NCBI GenBank assembly: GCA_026713485.1
Contig: JAPOOK010000007.1
Location: forward strand, 886 to 64,885
Length of the DNA stretch: 64,000 bases
Direction of reading: 5' to 3'
Origin: Chloroflexota bacterium
Lineage (GTDB): Bacteria > Chloroflexota > Dehalococcoidia > UBA6926
Shown here: positions 295 to 59,380 of the stretch, one piece after another
Position numbering within the stretch: position 1 is the stretch's first letter
How the letters are laid out: every line of letters begins with the position of its first letter
Program-made: the position numbers and the translations under genes
The notes under the pieces: model-generated
Databases searched by the model: none
The model's input: only the letters and a program-made list of their open reading frames with translations
Told to the model about the DNA's origin: nothing

Positions 295-1218
295 CTAGTC
301 CTGCGAGGATTCGACGGAGACATGATTTAGGGGCAACGGTAGGGGAGCCTGCACTTGTCCTTTGCCCTCGGTGATCACCCGCCTGACACTGACGGCGAGC
401 GTCTGCAGAGCAAGAAGGAGCGGGAACTCTCGTTTGTCCACGAGCACGTGTTCATGGACGACCTTGAGCAGTGGCTCTTTGGTCGCCGCGTTGACTTCTA
501 TCGGCGCGCCATCGGTGTTCAGTCCGAGTACAATCCGGTCCACTAGGGGACGAGCGGGCTCCATTAGATCGCTGGCCAGACAGAGGGCATCGTAGCGATT
601 GTGATGGTGGATGCCTAACGACGGGTGCAGCCCGGCCGCACACACGGCCCGCGCAGTGGCGGCCCGAATGATTGCATAACCGTAGTTGAGTAGGGTGTTT
701 ATGCCGTCCTGATCTGGGTCACGTCGAAATTCCTGGCCGAACATGCGTGGCCAGTAGAGACGTGCCGCCTGCCCTTCAATGTTGTCAGGGTCACCGCTAC
801 GGACTTTTGCGCCCATTCCGTCAAGTGGTGTGGGCATGCCATTCGTGGATTCGGCCAAAACGAATGCCTGCGCCTTGATCTTGGATCGGACAATCTGTTG
901 CCAGAGACGCTTGCGCGTTGGCTCAGTCATGGCTGCCTGAGCGCGCATCGTCTCGGTCTGCACGCTGTGTCCCTCAATCGGCAAGACAATGGCACTGGGC
1001 AGATGCTTCTCGTCGCTCACAACCACGGTTGCGTCATGTCGGGCGCACGAGGAGAGCAGATGCCGAGACATGGTGGCGTGAGGATGATCGATCACGAGCA
1101 CGCCGAGATCCTCCAGCGGCACTTGTCCCAGGCGCTGCCCATCTCGTTCGATCACGAGTTGTTCATGTTCAACCCGCAAGTGTGACGGCGAGGAGATTTC
1201 GACAGTGCGTCTAGTCAT
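295..1218 (-). CDS. cas1: CRISPR-associated endonuclease Cas1 (type II-like)
   Basis: 307 aa. Cas1 motifs LLNYGYAIIRAATARA and GLHPSLGIHHHNRYDALCLASDLMEPARP are present. It lies between cas9 and cas2. Confidence 0.93.
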   Translation of the reverse strand: MTRRTVEISSPSHLRVEHEQLVIERDGQRLGQVPLEDLGVLVIDHPHATMSRHLLSSCARHDATVVVSDEKHLPSAIVLPIEGHSVQTETMRAQAAMTEPTRKRLWQQIVRSKIKAQAFVLAESTNGMPTPLDGMGAKVRSGDPDNIEGQAARLYWPRMFGQEFRRDPDQDGINTLLNYGYAIIRAATARAVCAAGLHPSLGIHHHNRYDALCLASDLMEPARPLVDRIVLGLNTDGAPIEVNAATKEPLLKVVHEHVLVDKREFPLLLALQTLAVSVRRVITEGKGQVQAPLPLPLNHVSVESSQD

Positions 1219-4200
1219 TGGCCGGCCTTATGGAACCGAGGGGCGACACAACAACCTTGCGGCCCTTCCTCTTCCCAATGAGAACGTTGACACTAGCAAT
1301 GACACGTTCAGAATTGTCTTCGAGCGTCGCCGCCAAGTGGTGCCTAAGAAAGGCCCTGTTTCCAATGGGATCAAGAACTTGGACACGGTAGAGGTTGCCC
1401 ACACCGCCGTCGCCAAGCTCAACCATCTCATCAATGGCCAGGGACATGAGAAACTCATGTTCCTCCCATTCGCGGTTGATCATGGGAACTTTCTGTCTGC
1501 GGGCACGATTTGCCGCCTCCATCATGGAGACGAATCGCGCCTCGGCCTTACCGCTTAGCAGATTGCGGAAAATCTCAACGTGGTGGTTGCTGCCAAGGGC
1601 GTGGTATTTGAAGGGTTTGCCTTCCCTTGTCAGTTGTCTGTCCACTCCGTAGAGTTGCGTTTCCGACTTGTTCTCGGAGATTCTCACACGACGGACAGGC
1701 TGGCCGTTCGGGTTCTTGGGGTGGTAGAAGGGCTGATCGGGATTACCGAACGCCTCCTTGATGCTGTCGGCGTCTTCGATGCGCCGCTTAATTCCCTGAC
1801 GTAGAATCGGATCGACGATTCGCTTGACCATCGAACTTGTAAGTTCTTCCAGTCGCTTGCGGTAGACAAATTGCTTCTTGCCTGCGTCCTTCACGTAGCG
1901 GTAGCCGAAAGCGGTGTCCTCATGGAATGCGCCATGGAGTTTGCGCAATGAGGCGTGAGAGACGGCGATGCCGGATAACGCCTGCTCAATGTCTCTGTCG
2001 AAGCCCTCCCAGGGCGCGTGCTCCTTGGCGCTCTCTATCAGGGAGGCCTGCTGCTTCGTTTGATCAATCTCTCGGGCGGAGCGGGCCATGCGCTGATACA
2101 ATGAGCGAGTGGTTACGGCCACGACGATGGCATCAATCGCGTGGTGCCGGTTATCGGCACGATTTTTCTCGGCGACAGCATCGTCCGTAGGGCTGTCGCC
2201 TGCGAGAAACCGATTTAGGCCCCATGCGTGCCTGAGCGCGCCCGTCATGCCCCCCTTCGTGACATCCACGTCACGCCCCAGTGTCTTTAGGTACTCCTTC
2301 GCGTCGCGGCTGATGTAACGGGTGTCATTCAACTGTCGGCTTTCAAAGTTTTCAAGGAGTTTCTTGACCTCATCGTCTTTCTGTTGAAACCACTTTCGCT
2401 TTCGGGCCGGCACGCGGGCAACCATCTCTTGCCAACTCTCTGTAGCGCCGTAGGCTTCCCATGGTGTCCGATTGCGTTTGTGCAGGCGATTCTCTTCCGC
2501 CATGCAGAGGGTCTTGTTTCTAAAGGAATCATCCAGACTGCGGCTGAAGGGGATGATGTGCTCGACATCGACGGCTGGACTGAAGAGTTCATGGATGTTG
2601 ATGACCTTGCCTGTGTAGGGACAACGCTCGTCCGATTCTCGCCAAAGCCGGAACTTGATCAGGTCATCCCGAGATGACGCCTGAATACCTATATCCGCCA
2701 GCGCCCGCTCGGCCTCTCGGTTCATGTCCTGATTCTGGCGCTGCTGCTTCTGTAGGTTGGCTTTGTCTTTTCGGGACATTTTGAGGTCCCGCGCCATTTC
2801 GACGCGGATGATGTCGGGCTTCCCGTATTCGCGGATGATCGCATTGACCACTTTCCGGACCTCGTGGAGCGCTTTTTCGACGACAGGGTTTCTGAGGTCG
2901 CTGGGAGGTGGTCCAAGGAGTTCCGCGTCCCCAGACACCGAAGGACTGGCATACGTGTAGCCGGAGTCCTTACGGGCGTCAGAGTAGATTTTTCCCCATT
3001 CCATGTAAGGAAGGAGCTTCCTAAGTGCCTTCAGGGAAAGGTCTCCGTAACCTTCTTCAAACTCGATCGTGGCAAGCTCAAAGGCCGTAGTTCGTTCGAA
3101 GCCCCAGAATTCCTTGAGCCGTCGATAGAGAACTTTCTTGCTCTGAATGGTCGTGAGGTCTTCTACCAGAGCAATCCGCTGACCGTCGTCGGAGGCGCCC
3201 CACCAATCTCCCGCGAGACTCCGGAGCCTGGCCGCCGTTGTGTTGCCGGTGAGTTCCCTTCCTTTCGATCCGTCCAGTTCTAGATTGAATTTCGCCGTCT
3301 TGGGCAGGCCGACAGTTGAGCGGATCTTTGACCAGGTCATGGTCTGTTGAACTTCAAGGGCGGCGGCGAGCTTGTCGCGTTGGTCTTGGCTCAAAGGCGT
3401 TGATGCGCCGTCGCGCTGCCCAACAACCGCCAAGTTATTGACGTCCTGTAGAAGTCGAAACCGCTGAAATTCCAGTCGAGCCTTTGCAGTTCGTGGTCGA
3501 TTTGGCTCCAGCGAGCACATCCCGATGCGGCCTCCACGGAGCTTGAGGGGCCGTTGATGGAAGATTGTCCTGTGCAACTCGGCCTTGAGCCCATCGGTCA
3601 AGTCAGGGTGATACTCTCCCTGGGCGATCCAAATCTTCTCAAATTCGTCCTCATACATCCCCCGATCCGTGTGGCGTCCGCGACGGCGCGCGCCCTTGGG
3701 CAGATTCGCCAAATACTCTCCCAATGTGCGGGCTTCACCACCGTTCAGTTTTTTCCAGATGGCCGCAATTTCTCCGAGGACTGCACTCTCCTCCGTGTCG
3801 TCAGACTTTTCGCCCTCGTCCTTTGCTCGTTCCGCCTGAGCAATCTCATCGATGAATTCCTTGGCGTCCGGGTCATCCCGAAGGTCACCCCACCTGATCT
3901 TGCGGTTGCTCATGAAACCTCGCCGGGCGCAAATGTGAAGCAACACGCGCCCGAGCTCATAGGATTCTAGAGGGTGATCCAGTGCACGCTTGCGAAGCTC
4001 ATACGGGTCCCCAAGCATATTGAAGTGGCTCTCTTGTTCTGCCGAATCGAGCATGTCCTTTGGCAAGAAACCTGCTTTGGCCAGTTGAGAGCGTAGTGAA
4101 GCACGCCGCCTTGCCCGGCGTTGAAGGATGCGTCGAGCCAATCGAGCGGAGCGGCGTTGTGCGTTCTTCGGCGTTCGCGACTGTGCATCAACGGCTTCGT

Positions 4201-4315
4201 GGAAGATACGGACGCCGCTAGCGACGATGCTGCCGGACTTATCGATGGAGTCTTCGTCGACCAGACCCCATCCGACGGAGTTGGTTCCAAGATCGAGTCC
4301 AAGTGTGCGAACCAT
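1211..4315 (-). CDS. cas9: CRISPR-associated endonuclease Cas9 (compact, II-C-like)
   Basis: 1034 aa. Motifs seen: RuvC-I LGLDLGTNSVGWGLV, Arg-rich bridge helix RRSARLARRILQRRARRR, RuvC-II IIRVEMARDL, HNH DVEHIIPFSRSLDDSFRNKTLC..ENRLHKRNRTP, and RuvC-III NRHHAIDAIVVA. It overlaps cas1 by 8 nt. Confidence 0.95.
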   Translation of the reverse strand: MVRTLGLDLGTNSVGWGLVDEDSIDKSGSIVASGVRIFHEAVDAQSRTPKNAQRRSARLARRILQRRARRRASLRSQLAKAGFLPKDMLDSAEQESHFNMLGDPYELRKRALDHPLESYELGRVLLHICARRGFMSNRKIRWGDLRDDPDAKEFIDEIAQAERAKDEGEKSDDTEESAVLGEIAAIWKKLNGGEARTLGEYLANLPKGARRRGRHTDRGMYEDEFEKIWIAQGEYHPDLTDGLKAELHRTIFHQRPLKLRGGRIGMCSLEPNRPRTAKARLEFQRFRLLQDVNNLAVVGQRDGASTPLSQDQRDKLAAALEVQQTMTWSKIRSTVGLPKTAKFNLELDGSKGRELTGNTTAARLRSLAGDWWGASDDGQRIALVEDLTTIQSKKVLYRRLKEFWGFERTTAFELATIEFEEGYGDLSLKALRKLLPYMEWGKIYSDARKDSGYTYASPSVSGDAELLGPPPSDLRNPVVEKALHEVRKVVNAIIREYGKPDIIRVEMARDLKMSRKDKANLQKQQRQNQDMNREAERALADIGIQASSRDDLIKFRLWRESDERCPYTGKVINIHELFSPAVDVEHIIPFSRSLDDSFRNKTLCMAEENRLHKRNRTPWEAYGATESWQEMVARVPARKRKWFQQKDDEVKKLLENFESRQLNDTRYISRDAKEYLKTLGRDVDVTKGGMTGALRHAWGLNRFLAGDSPTDDAVAEKNRADNRHHAIDAIVVAVTTRSLYQRMARSAREIDQTKQQASLIESAKEHAPWEGFDRDIEQALSGIAVSHASLRKLHGAFHEDTAFGYRYVKDAGKKQFVYRKRLEELTSSMVKRIVDPILRQGIKRRIEDADSIKEAFGNPDQPFYHPKNPNGQPVRRVRISENKSETQLYGVDRQLTREGKPFKYHALGSNHHVEIFRNLLSGKAEARFVSMMEAANRARRQKVPMINREWEEHEFLMSLAIDEMVELGDGGVGNLYRVQVLDPIGNRAFLRHHLAATLEDNSERVIASVNVLIGKRKGRKVVVSPLGSIRPAND

Positions 4316-4349
4316 TGCAAATCTCCCAGTGGTTTGTTAGGGTTCGATC

Positions 4350-4453
4350 AGTGTAACTGAGTGACGCCTGCCTAGCTTTCATACCAAGGGACGAAAGTTC
4401 CGCAGGATACCCCTCGGGGACCTTACGCCCTCCCAGCGGGGGCGTTTCTCATT
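4350..4453 (+). ncRNA. Candidate tracrRNA (divergent from cas9); hypothesis only
   Basis: A promoter-like TTGCAA (4315-4320), 17-nt spacer and TAGGGT (4338-4343) precede it. An 8-bp hairpin ACGCCCTC/GGGGGCGT (4425-4445) followed by TTTCTCATT sits on the + strand, where there is no + strand CDS to terminate. The anti-repeat cannot be checked because no CRISPR repeat is in the window. Confidence 0.3.
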
Positions 4454-4568
4454 AAGAACTTCGATGGCTGTGGCTTTTGTCTGTGGTTCTTGCTCCCCAT
4501 GTTGCTTCCCTTCTGAAGCATGTGGATTCGGTGTTGGCAATACATGTTGAACCAAGCAAGGCAACCTC

Positions 4569-6356
4569 TTAGCTCTGGCCAGTTGTCTGATGCCTCCCAA
4601 CATAGCCGACGACCACCAGTTGCCTTTCCGCATCCCACGCGAAGGCGACACGGATTTGGTCACTACCACCGCCGACGCCCCGGCCGATGTGCGGCTCCAG
4701 TCGGAACTTGATGCCATTGTCGGTGGTCTCGTAGTCGGACCGGTACTTGCCCATCGTGACCTCTGACTGGCGGGGAACATAGTCCCAACCACACGCTTCA
4801 GCGAGCGACACCTTGAAGTCCGGTACAGACAGATCTCCCATCTTGGATGAGCGATACGTTGTGGCAAGCCACTCCAGCGCAGCATAGAGTTGATTCGGTC
4901 GATCGAAGATCAGCTTGCGGTCCGAACTACTATTGAGAACGACACGGAGCCCTTCAGGCCAGCGGCCATCCACGAAATCCAGCACGGCAGCCACATCGAC
5001 GAAATCGGGAGGTGCTGCGTCAGCGTTGTCAACGGCCGGAGAACCTCTCACGGCTTCACGCAGCGACTTCACTTCTGCGGAGCGCTCAAACAGCGTGGCT
5101 CTCAATCCGTCATTCTCTACCCGCAGTGAATCCCGTTCGTGGATCACGCTTTCACGAGACTGCTCAGTCTCGGCGAGTTTGATTTGGGTCTCTTGAAGAT
5201 TCGCCTTCGCGTTCTCTGCATCCCGGCGATGTTCTTCGACAGTCTCCAGCGATTCAGCGGATTCATTGGTCTGCGACGGTGTGTCTCCCTCAGTGAGGTT
5301 GCCGTCGTTTTGATCGCCCGGGTCTGGATTAGCCTGCACGGGTACGTCGGCAATGTGCTCGAGATTCTCTAGCGCCGCCAGGAGATTCTCCTGCACCTTC
5401 ATCCGCTGAGGTGACCTCTCCACTTCCTCACTGTACGTCTTACCCTGCTCCCTGACAGCAATGTATTCACTGATGAGGCTGTCCACCTCATCAAGACAAT
5501 CACCCAATGCAACGACGTCTTTCCACGGACCTGACCGATTCGGCAGCCTCTCTCCCGGGTCCCACTCGAAGTAGGTGAATATGTCGATGTGAGCGTCTAT
5601 CATGGCGTCAACGCGCTCACCAATCGTTGCCGCAGTGTCTCTCTCCATCAGCTTCCGGGCACGAAGTTCGTCCATCAGGCGCATCAAGCGAATCAAGGGG
5701 GCATCCCAGTCCGGAGCATCCGCCGGCAGGCCTTCCAGTTGTTTCAGAATGGAGTCGAACAGTTCCGCGCCCTCGGGCGACAACTGCAGCTCTCCGTCCC
5801 CCATTGCTTCATCGACAATCGCCTGCTCGGTTAGGGCTTCCTCAAGTTCCTGCTCATGGCGATGAATGTCTGCCTGATTGAAGACCAAGAATGCCATCAA
5901 CCGGGCATCGTCCCTCTTGACTTCCGGATGGTTCTCCAAGACGACAGAGGCTGCTGCTTCGCTGTGCCTCTTCATTTCATCCGGCGTCAACTTCGTCTGT
6001 TCATCTGCTAACTCGTGCTCATCCGCATATTGAATCAGCGCATCCGACACGATATCCCTGAGTTCGCCCTGGGATTCCCACCAGACGCCAAATATAGCGT
6101 TCGCCACGAATCCGTCGGTACGTGCAGCGTTACTCACCGGAATGATCAGGACCTCTACAGGGGCATCTGGAGCCTTCTCTCCTCGAAATCCATTGATCGG
6201 GACACGAGTACTTATGGCCTCATTCAGGTTGTCTCGACAGCCATCTGACACATCAGGCCGGCGTTGGAGGGCCCAACGAACGACGTCAAGCGTCGCCTGC
6301 CTGTCCATTGTGGCGAAGTACCCTGCATAGTCGCGCCTGTCTGAAGACATAGTCAT
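4569..6356 (-). CDS. Uncharacterised 595-aa protein upstream of cas9 (same strand)
   Basis: The long ORF starts at an ATG preceded by an SD-like GGGGAAAGGG. I recognise no P-loop or nuclease motif. The layout is an N-terminal region of about 330 aa that looks mostly helical, an acidic low-complexity linker, a coiled-coil-like segment (ENAKANLQETQIKLAETEQSRESVIHERDSLRVENDGLRATLFERSAEVKSLREAV), and a C-terminal domain of about 150 aa ending LEPHIGRGVGGGSDQIRVAFAWDAERQLVVVGYVGRHQ. Confidence 0.8.
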   Translation of the reverse strand: MTMSSDRRDYAGYFATMDRQATLDVVRWALQRRPDVSDGCRDNLNEAISTRVPINGFRGEKAPDAPVEVLIIPVSNAARTDGFVANAIFGVWWESQGELRDIVSDALIQYADEHELADEQTKLTPDEMKRHSEAAASVVLENHPEVKRDDARLMAFLVFNQADIHRHEQELEEALTEQAIVDEAMGDGELQLSPEGAELFDSILKQLEGLPADAPDWDAPLIRLMRLMDELRARKLMERDTAATIGERVDAMIDAHIDIFTYFEWDPGERLPNRSGPWKDVVALGDCLDEVDSLISEYIAVREQGKTYSEEVERSPQRMKVQENLLAALENLEHIADVPVQANPDPGDQNDGNLTEGDTPSQTNESAESLETVEEHRRDAENAKANLQETQIKLAETEQSRESVIHERDSLRVENDGLRATLFERSAEVKSLREAVRGSPAVDNADAAPPDFVDVAAVLDFVDGRWPEGLRVVLNSSSDRKLIFDRPNQLYAALEWLATTYRSSKMGDLSVPDFKVSLAEACGWDYVPRQSEVTMGKYRSDYETTDNGIKFRLEPHIGRGVGGGSDQIRVAFAWDAERQLVVVGYVGRHQTTGQS

Positions 6357-7737: not shown

Positions 7738-8643
7738 TCAGTTGAGAAGGTTCTCCACTTCCGGGCGGAGTAAGCTGATGACCGTGTCAAAGGAGGGCAG
7801 TTCGGTGACCAAGCGTCCAAGAGAGTTTTCCCACGTACCGGCAACGAGAGCGAGCATTGGGGCAGAGAAGAAATCGCCCCACGCATTAAAGGCGACACCA
7901 CGCACCGCACACTTCTGATGCAACAGGGCACTGAACCCATGCACATCAATGGAGTCCCTGTATTCGGTCAGGATCCTCCAGAGGTCGTAATAGTCGCGCG
8001 CCCTTGACCGGCTCCATCCGCGCCTTTCCATGATCTCTGTTTGTTGCAAGATGGATCGGAGCTTTTCCGCAACCACCTCCTCTAGTGAGTAGACCTGGAT
8101 ATCGACGCTAAGTGGCTCACCGTATTCGTGTGACACCCTTCTCAGATGGACTGGGCGAAGTACTGGTTCATCAACTGTGATCTCAATTCTGACCCGAGTC
8201 GCCGGCTGATTGTGCCAGGGAAACTGAGCTCGTATGGTGAATGCTTCCTGCCCACCGGGATGTGGTTCGCGTTCCGTATATCGTTCAGAGACGATCTCCG
8301 TGGAAGCATATTCGTCCAGCGAATTGGCGGCCGCTTGGCACGCCTGCTCAATCAAAGGTTCAAGTGCCTCACCTCTAGGAATACCATCCAATGCCGAAAA
8401 GTCCAGGTCTTCCGAGAAGCGGTAATCTCCGAAATAGCACTTCTTGAGCGCCGTGCCGCCTTTGAAGACCAGCTTGTCGTTCAACGGAGGTGTTTGGCTG
8501 ATTCCCGCCAGAATCCATGAGAGCAGATAGTCTCGCTCAACGATCTCCCAGGGGGCACCTTGGCGCCGGCGGGCCTCTTGCAGGCGAGTGCGGAGAGGTC
8601 TCAGGTGGTCACGAGACCCGGCAGGTTCTCTTGAATCATCCAT
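7738..8643 (-). CDS. abiEii: AbiEii/AbiGii-family nucleotidyltransferase toxin (type IV TA)
   Basis: The motif KLVFKGGTALKKCYFGDYRFSEDLDFS is typical of DUF1814/AbiEii. The track ORF extends to 8763, but ATG 8643 (MDDSREP..) gives a more plausible short overlap with abiEi. The start is uncertain. Confidence 0.85.
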   Translation of the reverse strand: MDDSREPAGSRDHLRPLRTRLQEARRRQGAPWEIVERDYLLSWILAGISQTPPLNDKLVFKGGTALKKCYFGDYRFSEDLDFSALDGIPRGEALEPLIEQACQAAANSLDEYASTEIVSERYTEREPHPGGQEAFTIRAQFPWHNQPATRVRIEITVDEPVLRPVHLRRVSHEYGEPLSVDIQVYSLEEVVAEKLRSILQQTEIMERRGWSRSRARDYYDLWRILTEYRDSIDVHGFSALLHQKCAVRGVAFNAWGDFFSAPMLALVAGTWENSLGRLVTELPSFDTVISLLRPEVENLLN

Positions 8644-9440
8644 CTGCTGTTGCAGGGTCCCTTTCTTGCGCCCGTGGGGTCGAGCATCCTGTATCCCTTG
8701 ATGGGAATTGAAGCCAAACGCTCGATGATGGGCGACTGGTTTCCGAGGTGTTCCAGAACCCAACCGAGACGCTTTGAGATCGTCACACCCAGTCTTTCCG
8801 CGTAATTCGCGATGCGCTCGATATCGACGCGATCCATTGCGACCTCGAAGGCATGGATGGCTTCACCAAAGTCACCACAGTATTGGGGCATAGAAATGCC
8901 GTCAAGCAGCGTGCGCTCAAGGTCAGTCATGTAGACTCGCGAGTCGCCCACCCATACCTGTTGCGTGCCGAAATAGCGTTCAGGCCGTACCTGGACAAAC
9001 TTGTATGTCACCTCGCCCACGGGGTAATGTCCGTCGCGGTTGCTGGATGTGTCATCTTGAAGGCGGGGAACAGAGTGCTCAGTGGTCGTCAGGACGAAGA
9101 CGCCCCGAGGTGTTTGTTCAGTGAGGCCGTGATAACTCATTGCAGACCAATGCGAGATTGCTGCGGGCTGTACGAGCGCCATCGCAACCTCGAATTCATG
9201 AGTGTCGGAAATCCCGGGAACAGACGAAGACAGGGCATAGAGACCACGACGCAGCGGAACAATCCAGCCGTTTTGCCGAAGGTGGAACAGTGCTTCTCCC
9301 AGATAGGAATCCTTCAGACCAACACGAGGCGCAAGTTCGCGTGCACGGTCGGTTGTGAAGATGCGGTCCCCTTCGTAAGCAAGCTGCCGCACCAACTCAA
9401 TACCGACAAGAGTCTGCTTGGGTCGTGTCCTGGAGGTCAT
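8601..9440 (-). CDS. abiEi: AbiEi-family antitoxin / transcriptional regulator
   Basis: It has an N-terminal wHTH-like region (IELVRQLAYEGDRIFTTDRARELAP..LGEALFHLRQNGWIVPLRRGLYAL) and sits directly upstream of abiEii. ATG 9440 follows an AAGGAA SD. The track start at 9491 would lie inside the predicted -10 box. Confidence 0.85.
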   Translation of the reverse strand: MTSRTRPKQTLVGIELVRQLAYEGDRIFTTDRARELAPRVGLKDSYLGEALFHLRQNGWIVPLRRGLYALSSSVPGISDTHEFEVAMALVQPAAISHWSAMSYHGLTEQTPRGVFVLTTTEHSVPRLQDDTSSNRDGHYPVGEVTYKFVQVRPERYFGTQQVWVGDSRVYMTDLERTLLDGISMPQYCGDFGEAIHAFEVAMDRVDIERIANYAERLGVTISKRLGWVLEHLGNQSPIIERLASIPIKGYRMLDPTGARKGPCNSRWMIQENLPGLVTT

Positions 9441-9490
9441 GTTCAGCCGTTCCTTCGATAGTGATTCTGGCATAGCATTATGGACTCGCA

Positions 9491-9519
9491 AAGATAGCGC
9501 GATATTTGGACAATGTCAA
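9491..9519 (-). promoter_or_regulatory. Sigma70-like promoter of the abiE operon
   Basis: Minus strand reads TTGACA (9519-9514), 17-nt spacer, TATCTT (9496-9491), about 45 nt upstream of ATG 9440. Confidence 0.5.
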
Positions 9520-11039: not shown

Positions 11040-11858
11040 ATGACAGAGCGACCACAGTACACAATCGCAGAGGAAATCGAGGGGGAACCGGAGCAAATGG
11101 CAACACTGGAAGCACTTCGGACGGAATGGACGGAGGAGCGGCTGGCGGAGGTGAGCGCTCAGCTTGAAGACGCGCACCCGAGCGAAATCGTCCGCTGGGC
11201 AGTTGAGAACTTCTTCCCGGACATCACTCTTGCGTGCAGCTTCGGCGGCGTGTCCGGCATGGTCCTGCTTGATATGGCCATGAAGATCAACCCGGAGGTC
11301 TCCGTCTTCTACGTGGACACGGATTTCCTGTTCCCGGATACGCATAACCTCAAAGACAAGGTGGGGCGTCGTTACGGCATCCAGCCCATCGGCTTCAAGA
11401 CGGACGTCACCGTTGCGCAGCAGGCCGCCCTGCACGGGCCCGAGCTGTGGAAGGTTGATCCCGACCTCTGCTGCGAGATTCGCAAGGTTGCGCCGAATGA
11501 GCAGGCGCTTGTCGGACAGAAGGCATGGATCGCCGGTCTGCGTCGCGACCAGGGCGACACCCGCAAGGATGTCGCGATTGTCGCGTGGGACTCCAAGTTC
11601 GACCTGATCAAGATCAATCCCCTGGCCAACTGGTCTGAGGACGATGTTTGGGACTATATCCGCGAGAACAACGTCCCGTACAACGCGCTGCACGAGCAGG
11701 GCTACCCGAGCATCGGCTGCACCAATTGCACGCGCCCCGTGGAGCCCGGCGAGGATCCGCGCGCAGGCCGCTGGTCCGATTTCGAGGACAAGGTCGAATG
11801 CGGCATCCACATCGACCCTGAGACGGGCAAGGTCGTTTCAACGACTGCGGCGAACTGA
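11040..11858 (+). CDS. cysH: Adenylylsulfate/phosphoadenylylsulfate reductase (Fe-S, APS-type CysH)
   Basis: PAPS-reductase fold with the cysteine pairs CC (DPDLCCEIRK) and CxxC (SIGCTNCT), plus the C-terminal ECGIH motif. ATG 11097 has a GGAG SD and is a likelier start than 11040. Confidence 0.9.
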   Translation: MTERPQYTIAEEIEGEPEQMATLEALRTEWTEERLAEVSAQLEDAHPSEIVRWAVENFFPDITLACSFGGVSGMVLLDMAMKINPEVSVFYVDTDFLFPDTHNLKDKVGRRYGIQPIGFKTDVTVAQQAALHGPELWKVDPDLCCEIRKVAPNEQALVGQKAWIAGLRRDQGDTRKDVAIVAWDSKFDLIKINPLANWSEDDVWDYIRENNVPYNALHEQGYPSIGCTNCTRPVEPGEDPRAGRWSDFEDKVECGIHIDPETGKVVSTTAAN

Positions 11859-11927
11859 CGCGGCCGTCTCAACATCACACAACACGCGAGAACGCCGATA
11901 ACGGCAAGGAAAACTCACAGGAGGAAT

Positions 11928-12506
11928 TTGAGAGTGACCACCAACCACAATGGAGTGACCGTTTGGTTCACCGGGCTTTCGGGCGCCGGCAAGAGCACCA
12001 TTGCAGAGCGACTGCTGGCGGTTCTGCGAGACCAGGGCATCAAGTCCGAGCTGCTGGACGGCGACGTCGTTCGCACGAACCTCAGCAAGGGACTTGGGTT
12101 CAGCAAGGAAGACCGTGACACCAACATCCGCCGCATCGGCTTTGTCAGCGACCTGCTGACACGCAACGGCGTTGTGAGCATCGTGTCCGCCATCTCTCCC
12201 TATCGCGAGGTTCGGGACGAAGTTCGCGAGCAGATCGGCGATTTCATTGAAGTCCACGTCCACGCCTCGCTTGATGAGCTCGTCAAGCGTGACGTCAAAG
12301 GCCTGTATGAGAAGGCGCTCAAGGGCGAGATTCAGAATTTCACCGGCGTTTCCGACCCCTACGAGGAGCCGCTGACACCCGAGGTTCTTGTCGACACGGA
12401 GCAGGAAGAGATCGAGGAGAGCCTGGGCAAGGTGCTGGGCGCGCTTGAGGAGCGGGGCATCATCCCGTCCGGCGCAAGCAGAGAGTTGGCGGGGGCGGCG
12501 ACCTAG
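11928..12506 (+). CDS. cysC: Adenylyl-sulfate kinase
   Basis: P-loop [15 protein letters not shown] and APS-kinase length. GTG 11934 after AGGAGG may be the true start. Confidence 0.92.
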
Positions 12507-12509
12507 ATT

Positions 12510-13718
12510 ATGGCAACGACTACGCTAAACACTCACACCACTGCGCCCCACGCGGACGTGGAAGAAACGATCGCCCCGCACGGCGGCACACTTGTCGACC
12601 GATTTGCGTCGCCTGATCAGGCAACAGAGATCCGGGAACGCGCGCCGGAGCTGACCCACATCACACTCAGCATGCGCGAGACCGCCGACCTCGACCTCAT
12701 CGCCGTCGGCGCAATGAGCCCGCTAACGGGATTCATGAACCAGGCGGACTACTCGCGCACGGTTCGTGAGATGCGTCTCGCAAACGGAACACTCTGGAGC
12801 CTGCCCATTACCCTTTCCGCCCCCGCGGACACCGCGCGCGGCCTGAAGAGTGGGCAGGACGTTGTGCTTGCGGACGCCTCCGGCCGCCACCTCGCCATCC
12901 TCTCGGTGGATGAGGTCTACGACTACGACAAGGAAGTAGAGGCGCAGCACGTCTTCGCAACGACGGAGGAGGCCCACCCCGGCGTCGCTTCCGTGTACGG
13001 CCAGCACGAGATGCTCATCGGCGGCTCCGTCACGGTTATCGAGCGTGAGAACCTGGAGCCTGAGCTGCGGCCGTACCGTGAGGACCCGGCACAGACACGC
13101 GCCGCATTTGCGGAACGGCATTGGCGGACGATCGTCGGGTTCCAGACCCGCAACCCCGTGCACCGCGCCCATGAGTACATCCAGAAGGCTGCGCTTGAGA
13201 TCGTCGATGGCCTGCTCCTCCACCCGTTGGTGGGCGAGACCAAGCCGGATGACATTCCTGCAGACGTGCGAATGCGCTGCTACGAGGCGTTGATCGAGGG
13301 GTACTACCCCGAGGATCGCGTCCACTTGTCGGTGCTGCCTGCGGCGATGCGTTACGCAGGCCCGCGCGAGGCCGTGTTCCATGCCCTCGTTCGCAAGAAC
13401 TATGGCTGCACGCATTTCATCGTCGGGCGAGGCCATGCGGGCGTCGGCAACTACTACGGGACATACGATGCGCAGGACTTGCTCCGCAGCATTCCGGCCG
13501 AAGACCTCGGCATCACGCCCCTGTACTTCGACCACTCCTTCTACTGCAATCGCTGCGAAGGCATGGCGTCAATGAAGACGTGTCCGCACGGGCCGGAGCA
13601 GCGTGTGTTCCTGAGCGGCACGCAGGTGCGTGACATGCTGTCTCGCGGCGAGGTGCCGCCCATGGAGTTCACGCGGCCTGAGGTGGCGCAGATTCTGATT
13701 GAGGCGGCGAAGGGATAG
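12510..13718 (+). CDS. sat: Sulfate adenylyltransferase (ATP sulfurylase)
   Basis: 402 aa with GFQTRNPVHRAHE and VGRGHAGVG motifs. Confidence 0.92.
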   Translation: MATTTLNTHTTAPHADVEETIAPHGGTLVDRFASPDQATEIRERAPELTHITLSMRETADLDLIAVGAMSPLTGFMNQADYSRTVREMRLANGTLWSLPITLSAPADTARGLKSGQDVVLADASGRHLAILSVDEVYDYDKEVEAQHVFATTEEAHPGVASVYGQHEMLIGGSVTVIERENLEPELRPYREDPAQTRAAFAERHWRTIVGFQTRNPVHRAHEYIQKAALEIVDGLLLHPLVGETKPDDIPADVRMRCYEALIEGYYPEDRVHLSVLPAAMRYAGPREAVFHALVRKNYGCTHFIVGRGHAGVGNYYGTYDAQDLLRSIPAEDLGITPLYFDHSFYCNRCEGMASMKTCPHGPEQRVFLSGTQVRDMLSRGEVPPMEFTRPEVAQILIEAAKG

Positions 13719-13869
13719 CCTCTCCGCCATCATTCACGCGGCCACCCAAGCCGGAACGCGGAACGCTAAGCGAATAGGCAAACCAGACTTTATCGCGAAC
13801 AGAGAAAATAATTTGAGTTGGAGCGCCGGCGGGCGTACCCTGTAGGGAGCTATCCGGAGGGAGGATAAC

Positions 13870-15672
13870 GTGGCTACGACAACGGAAACGGGACAACGTT
13901 CCGCCCGACCCTCGATCATCCAGTACCTGGATGAGGAGATTGCCGACTACGAAGGCAGGGTCAAGGAGTTTCGCGCCGGAGAGATTCCGGAGGACGAGTT
14001 CATGTCCTTCCGGCTGCGTCTCGGCGTCTATGGTCAACGGCAGCCGGATGCCCAGATGTTTCGCATCAAGATTCCCGGCGGCCTTGCTCACGCAGACCAA
14101 TGGGACGCCATCGGCCAGATTGCCGAGCAGTGGGCGCCGCTCCGCAAGGGACACATCACCACGCGAGAGAACGTCCAACTCCACCACCTCCTGCTTGAGG
14201 ACGCGGCGAAGGCCATGCACCTTCTCCAGAGCGTCGGCCTGAGCACCAAGGAGGCGTGCGGGAACTCCGTTCGCAATATCACGGCCTGCCCAATGGCCGG
14301 AATCGATCCTCAACAGGCATTTGACATCCTGCCCTACATGGGCGCGTTTGCGCGAAACTTTGTGCGACGCGATTTCACGTTCCACATGCCGCGCAAGGTC
14401 AAGCCGGCGTTTTCCTGCGGCGACCATGACTGCGCGACGGTGGGAATGCATGACATCGGCTTCGTCGCCCGGGTCCGGGAAATCGACGGCGAGCAGGTCA
14501 AGGGCTTCAAGATCACGGTCGGCGGCGGCACGTCGATCCAGCCGCTGATCGCAGAGACCATCTATGAGTTCGTGCCCGTCGATGAGTTCCTCCGCGTTTC
14601 GGAGGCCATGCTGCGCGTCTTCAACCGGACGGCGTGGCTGCGTCGCAACAAGATGAAGGCACGGATCAAGGTCCTCATCCACACCGAGGGCATCGACTCA
14701 TTCCGCGAGCAGGTCGAAGAAGAGTTGCAGCAGGACTGGGCGCAGGACTACGAGGACAAGGACTACCTGCTCTTCCACGATGATGAAGCGGCGGACATCC
14801 CCGCCCTGCCCACAGGCGTTGAGCCGCGTGGCGAGGACGATGCGGCTTTCCAGGCCTGGAAAAAGTCCAACGTCATCCCGCAAGAGGCGGACGGCTACAG
14901 CTTCGTCGGCATCACCGTGACGCGCGGCGACCTCTCGCCGGAGCAGTACTATGGAACGGCCGAGATCTCCCGCAAGTACGCGAGCTACCGTATCCGCACC
15001 ACGCCGGAGCAGAACATGATGCTCCGCTGGGTGCCGAATGCGTATCTGTACGACGTGTACCAGGAGCTCGTGGCGCTGGAGCTGCATGAAGGCGGCATGA
15101 ACCAGATCACGGACGTGACGTCCTGCCCCGGCACGGACAGCTGCAAGCTGGGCATCACGTCCTCCATGGGCCTGAACAAGGCGGTCGCGGATGCAGTGCG
15201 CAACCCCAATGGCCACACAAATTTGCTGGAAGACCCGCTCATCAAGCAGATGCACATCAAGATGAGCGGCTGCCCGAACGGCTGCGGACGCCACCACGTC
15301 TCGGACATCGGCTTCCACGGCGCGTTCATCAAGGGCCCCGGCGGCGGACAGATTCCGGCGTATGAGGTCTTCTTGGGCGGCAGCCATGAGAACGCGGACA
15401 TGCGCTTCGGCGTGCGGCCTCGCGGCAAGATTCCTGCCAAGAAGGTGACCGAGGCCGTATTCCACCTCCTCCGCTACTACAGGGACAACCGTGAGGACGG
15501 CGAGTTGTTCAAGGACTTCGCGCACCGGCTGGGTCGCGAGCCGTTCGAGGACATCATCAAGGACTACCAGGACGTCGGGCCGCTCAACAAGGCGAACCTC
15601 GATCACTACATCGACTACGACAAGTCCGTGCTGTACGTCATGGAGCGTGGCGAGGGCGAGTGCGCGACGTAG
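13870..15672 (+). CDS. sir: Sulfite reductase (ferredoxin-type, siroheme/4Fe-4S)
   Basis: 600 aa nitrite/sulfite reductase repeats with the Cys cluster TSCPGTDSCKLG .. SGCPNGCGRHH. GTG start follows GGAGGGAGG. Confidence 0.88.
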   Translation: MATTTETGQRSARPSIIQYLDEEIADYEGRVKEFRAGEIPEDEFMSFRLRLGVYGQRQPDAQMFRIKIPGGLAHADQWDAIGQIAEQWAPLRKGHITTRENVQLHHLLLEDAAKAMHLLQSVGLSTKEACGNSVRNITACPMAGIDPQQAFDILPYMGAFARNFVRRDFTFHMPRKVKPAFSCGDHDCATVGMHDIGFVARVREIDGEQVKGFKITVGGGTSIQPLIAETIYEFVPVDEFLRVSEAMLRVFNRTAWLRRNKMKARIKVLIHTEGIDSFREQVEEELQQDWAQDYEDKDYLLFHDDEAADIPALPTGVEPRGEDDAAFQAWKKSNVIPQEADGYSFVGITVTRGDLSPEQYYGTAEISRKYASYRIRTTPEQNMMLRWVPNAYLYDVYQELVALELHEGGMNQITDVTSCPGTDSCKLGITSSMGLNKAVADAVRNPNGHTNLLEDPLIKQMHIKMSGCPNGCGRHHVSDIGFHGAFIKGPGGGQIPAYEVFLGGSHENADMRFGVRPRGKIPAKKVTEAVFHLLRYYRDNREDGELFKDFAHRLGREPFEDIIKDYQDVGPLNKANLDHYIDYDKSVLYVMERGEGECAT

Positions 15673-15727
15673 AGTCGAACGCGCAAGCCGCTGAGTGATC
15701 GGAATCGACTGAGAAAGCGGGGCATAT

Positions 15728-16588
15728 ATGGCTGACCTTGGAGGACGGCGCATCGTTGTCCTTGAGGCGCGGATGCCCTCTGAACTCGGCAACCTTGTGG
15801 CCCGCCACGGCGGCGAGGCCATCAGCGCCCCTGCCCTGCGCGAGGCGGCGCTTCCAATGCGGCAGGATGTCCGGGATGTCATCGACGGCATCTGCGCCCA
15901 CACGATTCAGGCGGCTGTCTTCCTCACAGGTGTCGGCGCACGTGCCCTGATCAACGCAGCGGATGAGCTTGGCCGCAAGGATGAGTTCCTGGACGCCCTG
16001 CGTGAGACGACGGTCATCTGCCGCGGCCCAAAGCCGGTGGCGGTTCTCAAGCCGCTGCAAGTGCCCATCGCGCTCGTCTCACCGTCTCCCTACACGTCTG
16101 AGGACCTGCTGGCGGCGCTCAAGGAGTCCGACATCAATCTGAGCGGCAAGCGCGTCGTTCTTCAACATTACGGCGAGGTGAACGCCTGGCTGCGCGGTGA
16201 GCTTGAGGCGTTGGAGGCGGACGTTCTCGAAGTGTCTCTCTATTCGTGGCAACTCCCGGAGGACACACGCCCCGTCGTCGATGCTATCGCGCTGATGCTC
16301 GCACAGGACGTGGATGCCCTCATGCTGACCACGCAGTCGCAGGCCCACAATCTCTTCCGTATCGCGGAGCAGGTTGGGCTTGCCGACGAGCTTCGCGAAG
16401 CGCTGTCCTCGGGAATCGTCGTGGCGTCCGTTGGCCCCGTCTGCACGCGGGCGCTGCGCGATCACGGCGTTGAACCGGACGTCGAGCCTGTCAATCCCAA
16501 GATGGGTCCGTTGGTGCTCGCCCTCGCGGATTATCTGAACGCACAAGACTCCGTCCCGTCGCACGCAGCCGCCGCCACGGGGACATAG
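15728..16588 (+). CDS. Uroporphyrinogen-III synthase (HemD) family protein
   Basis: 286 aa with a two-lobed HemD-like sequence. It sits in the operon between sir and the siroheme genes. A second HemD domain is fused to cobA downstream. Confidence 0.6.
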   Translation: MADLGGRRIVVLEARMPSELGNLVARHGGEAISAPALREAALPMRQDVRDVIDGICAHTIQAAVFLTGVGARALINAADELGRKDEFLDALRETTVICRGPKPVAVLKPLQVPIALVSPSPYTSEDLLAALKESDINLSGKRVVLQHYGEVNAWLRGELEALEADVLEVSLYSWQLPEDTRPVVDAIALMLAQDVDALMLTTQSQAHNLFRIAEQVGLADELREALSSGIVVASVGPVCTRALRDHGVEPDVEPVNPKMGPLVLALADYLNAQDSVPSHAAAATGT

Positions 16589-35295: not shown

Positions 35296-35880
35296 ATGCG
35301 CAGAATTACTGCATTCGGCGCAATCCTCTTCTCGCTGGCACTGGGCTTGGCTCTGGTATGGGCGACTGTGGCTGTCGCCATTAGCGATGATTCTCCGGAC
35401 GATGCCGCTCCTGCTTCGCGTACACAGGCAGTCGAGAACGACCCCGACAATTCAGATGATGATGACGAGGACGATCCCGACCCCGACAGTGATAACCCTC
35501 CACTGACCGATAACGACGGCACAGACTCTGACGGCATCGATACTCCAACACCTACCGACAATGACGGCATCGACACGCCAGAACCCTCCCAACAGCAGAC
35601 CAGGGTCGCCGCTCAACAGGATCAGGCTATAGCTCAGCAGCAACAGGTCGATACGGACAACGACGGCTTCGATACCACCGCCAATACCGATCACGACGGC
35701 TTCGATACCACCGCCAACACCGATCACGACGGCTTCGATACCACTGCCAATACCGATCACGACGGCTTCGATACCACCGCCAATACCGATCACGACGGCA
35801 CCGACTCCGACGGTATCGATACTCCAACACCTACCGACAACGACGACGATAGTGATGACACCAATGACCTCAGTTCTTGA
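35296..35880 (+). CDS. Secreted acidic repeat protein with thrombospondin-type-3-like DxDxDG calcium-binding repeats
   Basis: Signal/TM segment ITAFGAILFSLALGLALVWA, then repeats of TDNDGIDTP and NTDHDGFDTTA. Confidence 0.7.
   Translation: MRRITAFGAILFSLALGLALVWATVAVAISDDSPDDAAPASRTQAVENDPDNSDDDDEDDPDPDSDNPPLTDNDGTDSDGIDTPTPTDNDGIDTPEPSQQQTRVAAQQDQAIAQQQQVDTDNDGFDTTANTDHDGFDTTANTDHDGFDTTANTDHDGFDTTANTDHDGTDSDGIDTPTPTDNDDDSDDTNDLSS
35662..35793 (+). repeat. Tandem repeat, 33 nt x 4 (in-frame, inside the CDS)
   Basis: Unit GACGGCTTCGATACCACCGCCAATACCGATCAC at 35662, 35695, 35728 and 35761, with 1-2 substitutions. It is flanked by a ~50-nt outer repeat (35516-35566 / 35794-35845). Confidence 0.9.
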
Positions 35881-59004: not shown

Positions 59005-59090
59005 TGGGCAAACAAAGAACTACTCTCGGAGATTGCCGGATGGAACAAACCGCCACGAATCCCGGCGCATCAATCATAGCATCCACACCG

Positions 59091-59380
59091 CTCACCCTGA
59101 GCCTGCCGAAGGGCCACCCCAGTTGTCATTCCGAGCGCAGCCGAGGAATCTAAAGCCTCAATTGCGCCAACCAACCCCCCGTTCACCCTGAGCGTAGTCG
59201 AAGGGCCACCCCCCCTCCGTCATTCCCGCGCAGGCGGGAATCTGAATCCCATTGCGCCAACCAAGCCCCTCAACGCCAACCACGGTATCCCCTCTCCCCG
59301 AGGGAGAGGGTTAGGGTGAGGGGGTGCCCCTTGTCATTCCGAGCGCAGCCGAGGAACCCAAGAACATAATTGCGCCGTAC
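59091..59380. repeat. Largest REP-like mosaic in the window (at least 6 units of 4 families)
   Basis: CTCACCCTGAGCCTGCCGAAGGGC (59091), GTCATTCCGAGCGCAGCCGAGGAATCTAAAGCCTCAATTGCGCCAACC (59125-59172), GTTCACCCTGAGCGTAGTCGAAGGGC (59181), GTCATTCCCGCGCAGGCGGGAATCTGAATCCCATTGCGCCAACC (59219-59262), CCCTCTCCCCGAGGGAGAGGGTTAGGGTGAGGG (59290), and GTCATTCCGAGCGCAGCCGAGGAAC.. (59333-59380). Confidence 0.9.

Follow-up and report, generated by a model that had tools for sequence, protein, structure and literature searches.

The window considered here, a stretch of 64,000 nucleotides (nt) from a bacterium of the Chloroflexota (Dehalococcoidia; UBA6926; GenBank assembly GCA_026713485.1, contig JAPOOK010000007.1, positions 886 to 64,885 of the forward strand), carries at its left end a type II-C CRISPR-Cas (clustered regularly interspaced short palindromic repeats and associated proteins) locus, together with an NYN-domain gene and an AbiE pair. 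The subject of this report is an open reading frame (ORF) for a protein of 595 amino acids (aa), which lies between cas9 and the NYN-domain gene on the same strand as cas9 and is separated from the start codon of the latter (position 4315) by 253 nt. A preliminary description of the sequence had proposed that this uncharacterised protein is either an accessory of Cas9 or an independent defence protein. Profile comparisons show that its C-terminal part and that of HEC-07, a single-gene candidate defence system, are homologous, whereas a functional link to cas9 is not supported. The ORF, the parts of its product, and the residues discussed below are the following.

4569–6356, minus strand: ORF of 595 codons with an ATG start
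Start at 6350, minus strand: variant of the same ORF, 593 aa, beginning at the second ATG (based on the spacing of the sequence AAGGGA and the starts of homologues)
5337–6356, minus strand: N-terminal, predicted all-helical region, residues 1–340 (helices 10–335 in the AlphaFold2 model)
5259–5336, minus strand: acidic, predicted disordered linker, residues 341–366 (by composition and a predicted local distance difference test score, pLDDT, below 50)
5046–5258, minus strand: predicted coiled-coil helix, residues 367–437 (a single helix, 365–437, in the AlphaFold2 model)
4572–5015, minus strand: predicted C-terminal alpha/beta domain, residues 448–595 (455–590 in the AlphaFold2 model; homology to HEC-07)
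4689–4691, minus strand: codon of His556 in the motif H-I-G-x-G, conserved without exception in the family and almost so across both architectures; candidate active-site residue
4650–4652, minus strand: codon of Arg569 in the I-R-V-A-F strand, invariant in both architectures; candidate active-site residue
4590–4592, minus strand: codon of His589 in the G-x-H-Q tail, the equivalent of H543 of HEC-07 (GRHQ aligned with GQHQ)

There is ample evidence that the ORF is a real and conserved gene. A word-indexed search with its product retrieved 15 full-length relatives with 24–77% identity, and a profile built from these relatives was compared with 1.84 billion cluster representatives, of which 2,257 reached E ≤ 1e-3 and 356 reached E ≤ 1e-30; most of the matches are 550–650 aa long and aligned from end to end. 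These homologues and the coordinates of the ORF confirm that it is, as described previously, a long coding frame co-oriented with cas9. Its 5' end (6350–6356, minus strand) contains two in-frame ATGs, two codons apart, of which the second is the likelier start because the sequence AAGGGA is better spaced from it and because homologues begin at the equivalent position; the true product probably has 593 aa.

One genome was scanned per species, which yielded 233 loci that encode relatives. The best 80 of these loci are all from Chloroflexota, nearly all of them from metagenome-assembled genomes of Dehalococcoidia and a few from Caldilineaceae, which sets the family apart from HEC-07 proper. No relatives were found in phage records, and the only relative in plasmid records is a HEC-07 proper in Variovorax; an identical copy of the protein is absent from the contig index searched. 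Two members of the family that have diverged from each other are encoded on one chromosome of Dehalococcoidia (OZ242191.1), with 39% (L009) and 32% (L026) identity to the query.

Scans of the full protein against Pfam, NCBIfam, and PHROGs returned only noise below threshold, and comparisons with the sequences of the PDB (phmmer and profile) returned only coiled-coil matches or noise. The previous failure to recognise a catalytic motif agrees with these results insofar as Pfam detects no catalytic domain.

The relationship to HEC-07 is evident at two levels of comparison. The HEC-07 models of PADLOC (PDLC04158–04161) match the protein with an E-value of 3.7e-11, aligning residues 372–594 with positions 330–552 of a profile of 553 positions; in relatives of the query type, these profiles match only the last ~40%. 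An alignment of the query family with seven HEC-07 proteins by hhalign covers residues 403–595 (probability 100%, E 2.6e-59), with no alignment upstream of residue 403, including the N-terminus. Both comparisons establish homology of the C-terminal ~190 residues, which comprise the end of the coiled coil and the alpha/beta domain, with the corresponding module of HEC-07, and the two proteins share the motifs ALEWLATTY, HIGxG, IRIAFxWD, and VVGYIGxHQ.

The same module occurs in two architectures. Among 167 collected relatives, 145 combine it with an N-terminal region of the query type and nine with an N-terminus of the HEC-07 type; the remainder are fragments or truncations and one long protein (P0134), whose N-terminus is below the profile threshold. 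In three relatives (P0145, P0154, and P0160), the alignment with the HEC-07 profile spans the entire profile (PADLOC E 1e-49 to 1e-57). None of the 167 relatives joins the query-type N-terminal region to a different C-terminal effector, all apparent exceptions being tail variants or truncations, and a word-indexed search with the C-terminal domain alone found only four proteins. By these comparisons, the ORF belongs to the architecture that has so far not been described, an abundant one that matches neither Pfam nor NCBIfam models and is covered by the HEC-07 models of PADLOC only in its last part. The occurrence of the HEC-07 effector module with two or more N-terminal regions that are unrelated to each other is what would be expected if sensors were exchanged on a constant effector. 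In addition, the family extends the range of the module to the Dehalococcoidia, in which, to our knowledge, few defence systems have been characterised.

HEC-07 is one of the single-gene “Hma-embedded candidates” reported by Payne et al. (bioRxiv 10.1101/2024.01.29.577857), and is, by the account given in that preprint, among the seven that lowered plaquing in Escherichia coli. According to the same account, HEC-07 begins with an AdoMetDC-like domain, continues with a thioredoxin-like one, and ends in a domain that resembles HP0892, a toxin of the RelE family, and has a conserved histidine (H543). No subsequent characterisation of HEC-07 was found in a literature search. Beyond the shared module, the length of the two proteins is similar (514–568 aa in HEC-07 versus 595 aa), and both are encoded by single genes without a conserved partner; the closest relatives of the ORF are, moreover, adjacent to or enclosed by other defence systems, as is HEC-07. 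By contrast, no alignment is obtained over the N-terminal ~400 residues, where HEC-07 is described as having AdoMetDC-like and thioredoxin-like domains and the present protein is predicted to be all-helical. A further gene of the HEC-07 type was noted on the plasmid of Variovorax paradoxus mentioned above (NZ_CP138514.1; locus L089, 6531–8237), where an ORF of 568 aa is covered for the most part by the HEC-07 profile (PADLOC E 5e-47) and has no feature in the gene table of PLSDB, which is incomplete.

An AlphaFold2 model of the full protein, made with the family alignment (pLDDT 78.8), agrees with the three parts discerned previously, namely a helical N-terminus, an acidic linker followed by a coiled coil, and a C-terminal alpha/beta domain. 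The N-terminal region matches no known fold in Pfam, the PDB, or BFVD; a Foldseek search with the whole chain against the PDB and BFVD gave nothing significant, the sole matches of the N-terminal region being weak ones to helical folds of the globin or prenyltransferase type. The linker (23% D+E, 0% K+R) is the least conserved part of the protein (0–31% identity) and varies in length, with an extreme in the relative P0022, where a very long, repetitive linker rich in proline and threonine joins the N- and C-terminal regions. The helix that follows draws only coiled-coil proteins (M protein, GCN4, and Beclin) in profile searches of the PDB. The C-terminal domain (~145 aa) is modelled with high confidence on its own (pLDDT 91.9; predicted template modelling score 0.88) and is the best-conserved part of the protein. 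Across the family, its identity ranges from 84 to 39%, compared to 66 to 18% in the N-terminal region, as would be expected for a fixed effector on a faster-evolving sensor.

In an alignment of 30 diverse C-terminal domains of both architectures, the invariant residues include N475, Y542, G560, R569, F572, W574, G584, G587, H589, and Q590, and H556 is nearly invariant. In the model of the domain, H556, R569, and H589 belong to the last three strands or follow them directly, a placement that would suit acid-base catalysis. The three conserved residues are direct targets for mutagenesis. The YoeB, YafQ, and HP0892 toxins also have a histidine near the C-terminus.

In the light of these results, there is a somewhat better than even chance that the ORF encodes a stand-alone member of a large family in the Chloroflexota genomes sampled, which carries the C-terminal module of HEC-07 on a different, helical N-terminus, acts in the manner presumed for HEC-07, and is adjacent to cas9 only incidentally. 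The N-terminal region would sense an infection cue or be regulated by it, the coiled coil would mediate oligomerisation, and the RelE-like C-terminal domain would serve as a toxic effector of the ribonuclease (RNase) type that employs H556, R569, and H589-Q590 and thereby halts translation in infected cells, an outcome that amounts to abortive infection. Of the two roles proposed previously, that of an independent defence protein is supported by the homology of the C-terminal module to a system that reduced plaquing in E. coli. The argument is one from homology only, and most of the wider family is found outside of defence contexts.

Two sets of observations weigh against this reading, the first of which concerns the C-terminal domain. 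The preliminary description had seen a loose likeness to toxins of the RelE/ParE type, and the ranking of structural matches points in the same direction: RelE, HigB, YoeB, ParE, and HP0892, which form one superfamily, account for more than half of the top 50 Foldseek matches of the domain model in the PDB, with best target-normalised template modelling scores of 0.44–0.54 (highest, 0.54, for RelE of Thermus thermophilus, 2KHE). Like these toxins, the domain has conserved histidine and arginine residues on terminal beta-strands. None of the matches to structures of the RelE family is significant (best E 0.075, probability ≤0.51), and sequence comparisons do not support the relationship. None of the 30 diverse C-terminal domains matches a toxin family of Pfam at E ≤ 10, a search of the PDB sequences with the domain profile finds no relationship to RelE or ParE, and hhalign of the domain profile against RelE of E. 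coli (verified sequence) gives a probability below 1%, as it does against YafQ and YoeB (unverified sequences). Moreover, the tail histidine is replaced by Q or R in a few relatives; among P0019, P0022, P0037, P0139, P0156, and P0166, the otherwise invariant G-x-H-Q is changed to GRQQ, GRRQ, or GQHP. Even for HEC-07, RNase activity appears to be hypothetical, because the section of the preprint on this system describes neither a mutant in the conserved histidine nor a biochemical test (bioRxiv 10.1101/2024.01.29.577857).

It is therefore worth considering that the C-terminal domain is not an RNase, and that the resemblance to RelE is superficial, the conserved histidines, arginine, and aromatic residues binding a ligand, a nucleic acid, or a partner in a different effector mechanism. 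The size of the domain would fit this alternative, since it is ~55 residues longer than RelE-type toxins (~90 aa) and contains inserted elements. Two further differences from these toxins are its fusion to a large N-terminal region and the lack of an adjacent antitoxin gene, the clustering of neighbouring genes at 87 loci having revealed no conserved small gene. On the other hand, a single superfamily dominates the top matches, an independent structural comparison led to the same assignment for HEC-07, as reported in the preprint (bioRxiv 10.1101/2024.01.29.577857), and the placement of the invariant residues (His, Arg, and His-Gln) on strands that follow each other would suit acid-base catalysis. 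An effector other than an RNase is consequently an unlikely alternative, albeit one of some weight. The likeness to RelE and ParE holds at the level of fold ranking and of the annotation of HEC-07, and a RelE-like RNase is put forward as the leading hypothesis, not as a finding.

The second set of observations concerns the genomic surroundings. The features in the vicinity of the ORF are the following.

Left edge of the window, beyond cas1: cas2, which runs off the edge
295–1218, minus strand: cas1, on the same strand as cas9
1211–4315, minus strand: cas9, 1034 aa (RuvC_III, HNH_4, and Cas9_a domains)
4350–4455, plus strand: gene resembling a trans-activating CRISPR RNA (tracrRNA), with anti-repeat, hairpins, terminator, and pairing with the repeat of the related locus L001
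6636–7391, plus strand: NYN-domain gene, divergent from the ORF
7738–8763, minus strand: AbiEii
8601–9491, minus strand: AbiEi

The first ~10 kb of the window, which comprise the truncated cas2, cas1, cas9, the tracrRNA-like gene, the ORF, the NYN-domain gene, and the genes of AbiEii and AbiEi, have a lower G+C content (0.54–0.59) than the rest (0.60–0.64). They are bordered on the right by a sulfate-assimilation operon (11,040–16,588) that encodes phosphoadenosine phosphosulfate reductase, adenosine phosphosulfate kinase, ATP sulfurylase, sulfite reductase, and HemD; no tRNA gene is located within 25 kb. The low G+C content, the defence genes, and the bordering housekeeping operon indicate that the ORF is part of a small defence island, and the domain scans substantiate the presence of AbiE and NYN genes that had been reported for it.

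Whether the family as a whole resides in such islands was judged from 87 loci that encode relatives, with flanks of 10 kb. The neighbours of the closest relatives (at least 48% identity) and of the ORF itself comprise genes for type I restriction-modification, CRISPR, AbiE, Nmad2, TIR, PLD, DndB, and EcoRII; the relatives at ~50% identity adjoin genes of Nmad2, Fic, DndB, Macro, TIR, PLD, and restriction systems but no cas genes. In the window and in the loci L001–L003, the members of the family are located in or near other defence systems. By contrast, more distant relatives are surrounded by metabolic genes. Among 120 flanking genes of 30 non-redundant loci, most are metabolic and only few have defence matches, and no neighbouring gene is common to more than 18 of the 87 loci; those 18 represent a single subclade (~39% identity) that is syntenic in a housekeeping-like neighbourhood of small genomes. 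The expectation that orthologues occur in defence contexts is borne out for the closest relatives, but not for the wider family, most of which lies elsewhere.

This distribution would be compatible with a non-immune function, in which the product of the ORF is a toxin-like protein or a regulator that acts alone in the cells of Chloroflexota, for example in a stress-responsive control of translation, and its gene is in the island by chance or by hitch-hiking on mobile DNA. The abundance of the family in a single phylum and the presence of two copies on OZ242191.1 would also fit such a role. However, the C-terminal module is homologous to that of a system reported to protect E. coli from phages, the location of the gene differs between subclades, as expected for accessory genes, and the four closest loci are all rich in defence genes or adjacent to a recombinase. 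A non-immune function is possible but improbable, about on a par with an effector other than an RNase.

Clearly less probable, and rather doubtful, is a clade-specific unit of two genes, the NYN-domain gene and the ORF, whose products would cooperate under a shared divergent promoter region, for example as a pair of effectors or as an effector with its regulator. A divergent NYN-domain gene is present in the window, in L001 (9220–9612), and in L088 (221–850), the locus of the next relative (62% identity), where the NYN protein is 63% identical and has been kept even though cas9 is missing. NYN proteins, moreover, are themselves candidates for defence (HEC-09; bioRxiv 10.1101/2024.01.29.577857). 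By contrast, the NYN gene of L001 is truncated to roughly 84 codons, no NYN gene was detected next to the more distant relatives, the NYN protein of the window has no match among the PADLOC models, and HEC-09 gave no protection, as stated in the preprint (bioRxiv 10.1101/2024.01.29.577857). Downstream of the relative in L088 are a lipoprotein-like ORF and, at a distance of ~1.9 kb, a gene encoding a serine recombinase (5015–5992), which suggests that the pair of NYN gene and ORF can travel on mobile DNA.

The remaining explanations concern the proximity to cas9, which had led to the proposal that the protein is a Cas9 accessory. Apart from the common strand and the short distance, this proposal drew on the lack of a terminator, and a terminator scan indeed found no minus-strand terminator-like site in the gap of 253 nt, which makes it possible that transcripts of the ORF continue into cas9. 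The gap is, however, occupied by the tracrRNA-like gene on the opposite strand, which consists of an anti-repeat core (4352–4372), internal hairpins, a terminator-like hairpin (4425–4445), and a T-rich tail, and is transcribed away from cas9, convergent on the 3' end of the ORF.

The identity of this gene is corroborated by L001, which contains an array of 22 repeats after cas2. The repeat, read antisense to cas9 (GTTGTGGACAGCGGGCAGGCGTCACTCAGTTACAAT), pairs over almost its whole length with positions 4345–4400 of the plus strand of the window (−52.6 kcal/mol, compared to −19.8 ± 3.5 kcal/mol for shuffled sequences). The tracrRNA stretch is nearly identical in the window and in L001, and the sequence past the terminator diverges; the terminator stem of L001 is longer than that of the window, with the pairing kept. 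A search of the window for a CRISPR array was negative, as was a comparison of its first 10,000 nt, including the gap, with Rfam; judged by collinearity with L001, the array would lie beyond the left edge. The CRISPR module starts at the oppositely oriented tracrRNA and therefore does not include the ORF. As a by-product, these comparisons identify the tracrRNA and the repeat of a type II-C Cas9 from Chloroflexota, both of which are needed for any use of this Cas9.

A search with Cas9 and Cas1 of the window (tblastn) detected homologs in only one of the 87 loci, L001, which shares with the window one collinear block of 6.9 kb (80.6% identity) that extends from cas2 to the truncated NYN gene. 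The two arrangements represent a single event, because they are near-orthologous copies of the same block. The other 86 loci, including L088, have neither cas9 nor cas1 within 10 kb. A coupling to cas9 across the family is excluded. The type II-C locus (tracrRNA, cas9, cas1, cas2, and array) adjoins a member of the family only in the window and in L001, with the ORF beyond the tracrRNA boundary, and is unlinked in the other relatives; the position of the ORF probably reflects the clustering of defence genes in an island of one lineage, and a functional or operon link is not supported.

Two proposals that involve Cas9 have to be weighed against this background. A combined scenario, in which the helical N-terminus is an undescribed infection sensor that gates an effector of the HEC-07 type, and in which the ORF and the NYN gene are coupled to the type II-C system in this lineage, for example as a backup by abortive infection when Cas9 is inhibited, is very unlikely. 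The least probable of all explanations is the Cas9 accessory itself, co-transcribed with cas9 and modulating type II-C interference or adaptation, or serving as a backup on failure of Cas9, since the arrangement that the window shares with L001 counts as one event, the conserved tracrRNA gene intervenes on the opposite strand, and the next relative does without cas9. A tempting lead is thereby removed and replaced by a testable one, the stand-alone protein with a HEC-07-type C-terminal module.

Farther to the right, the window contains two tandem repeats, one of 4.2 copies of a 33-nt unit (35,660–35,799; 96% match) and the other of two copies of a 92-nt unit (59,088–59,269).

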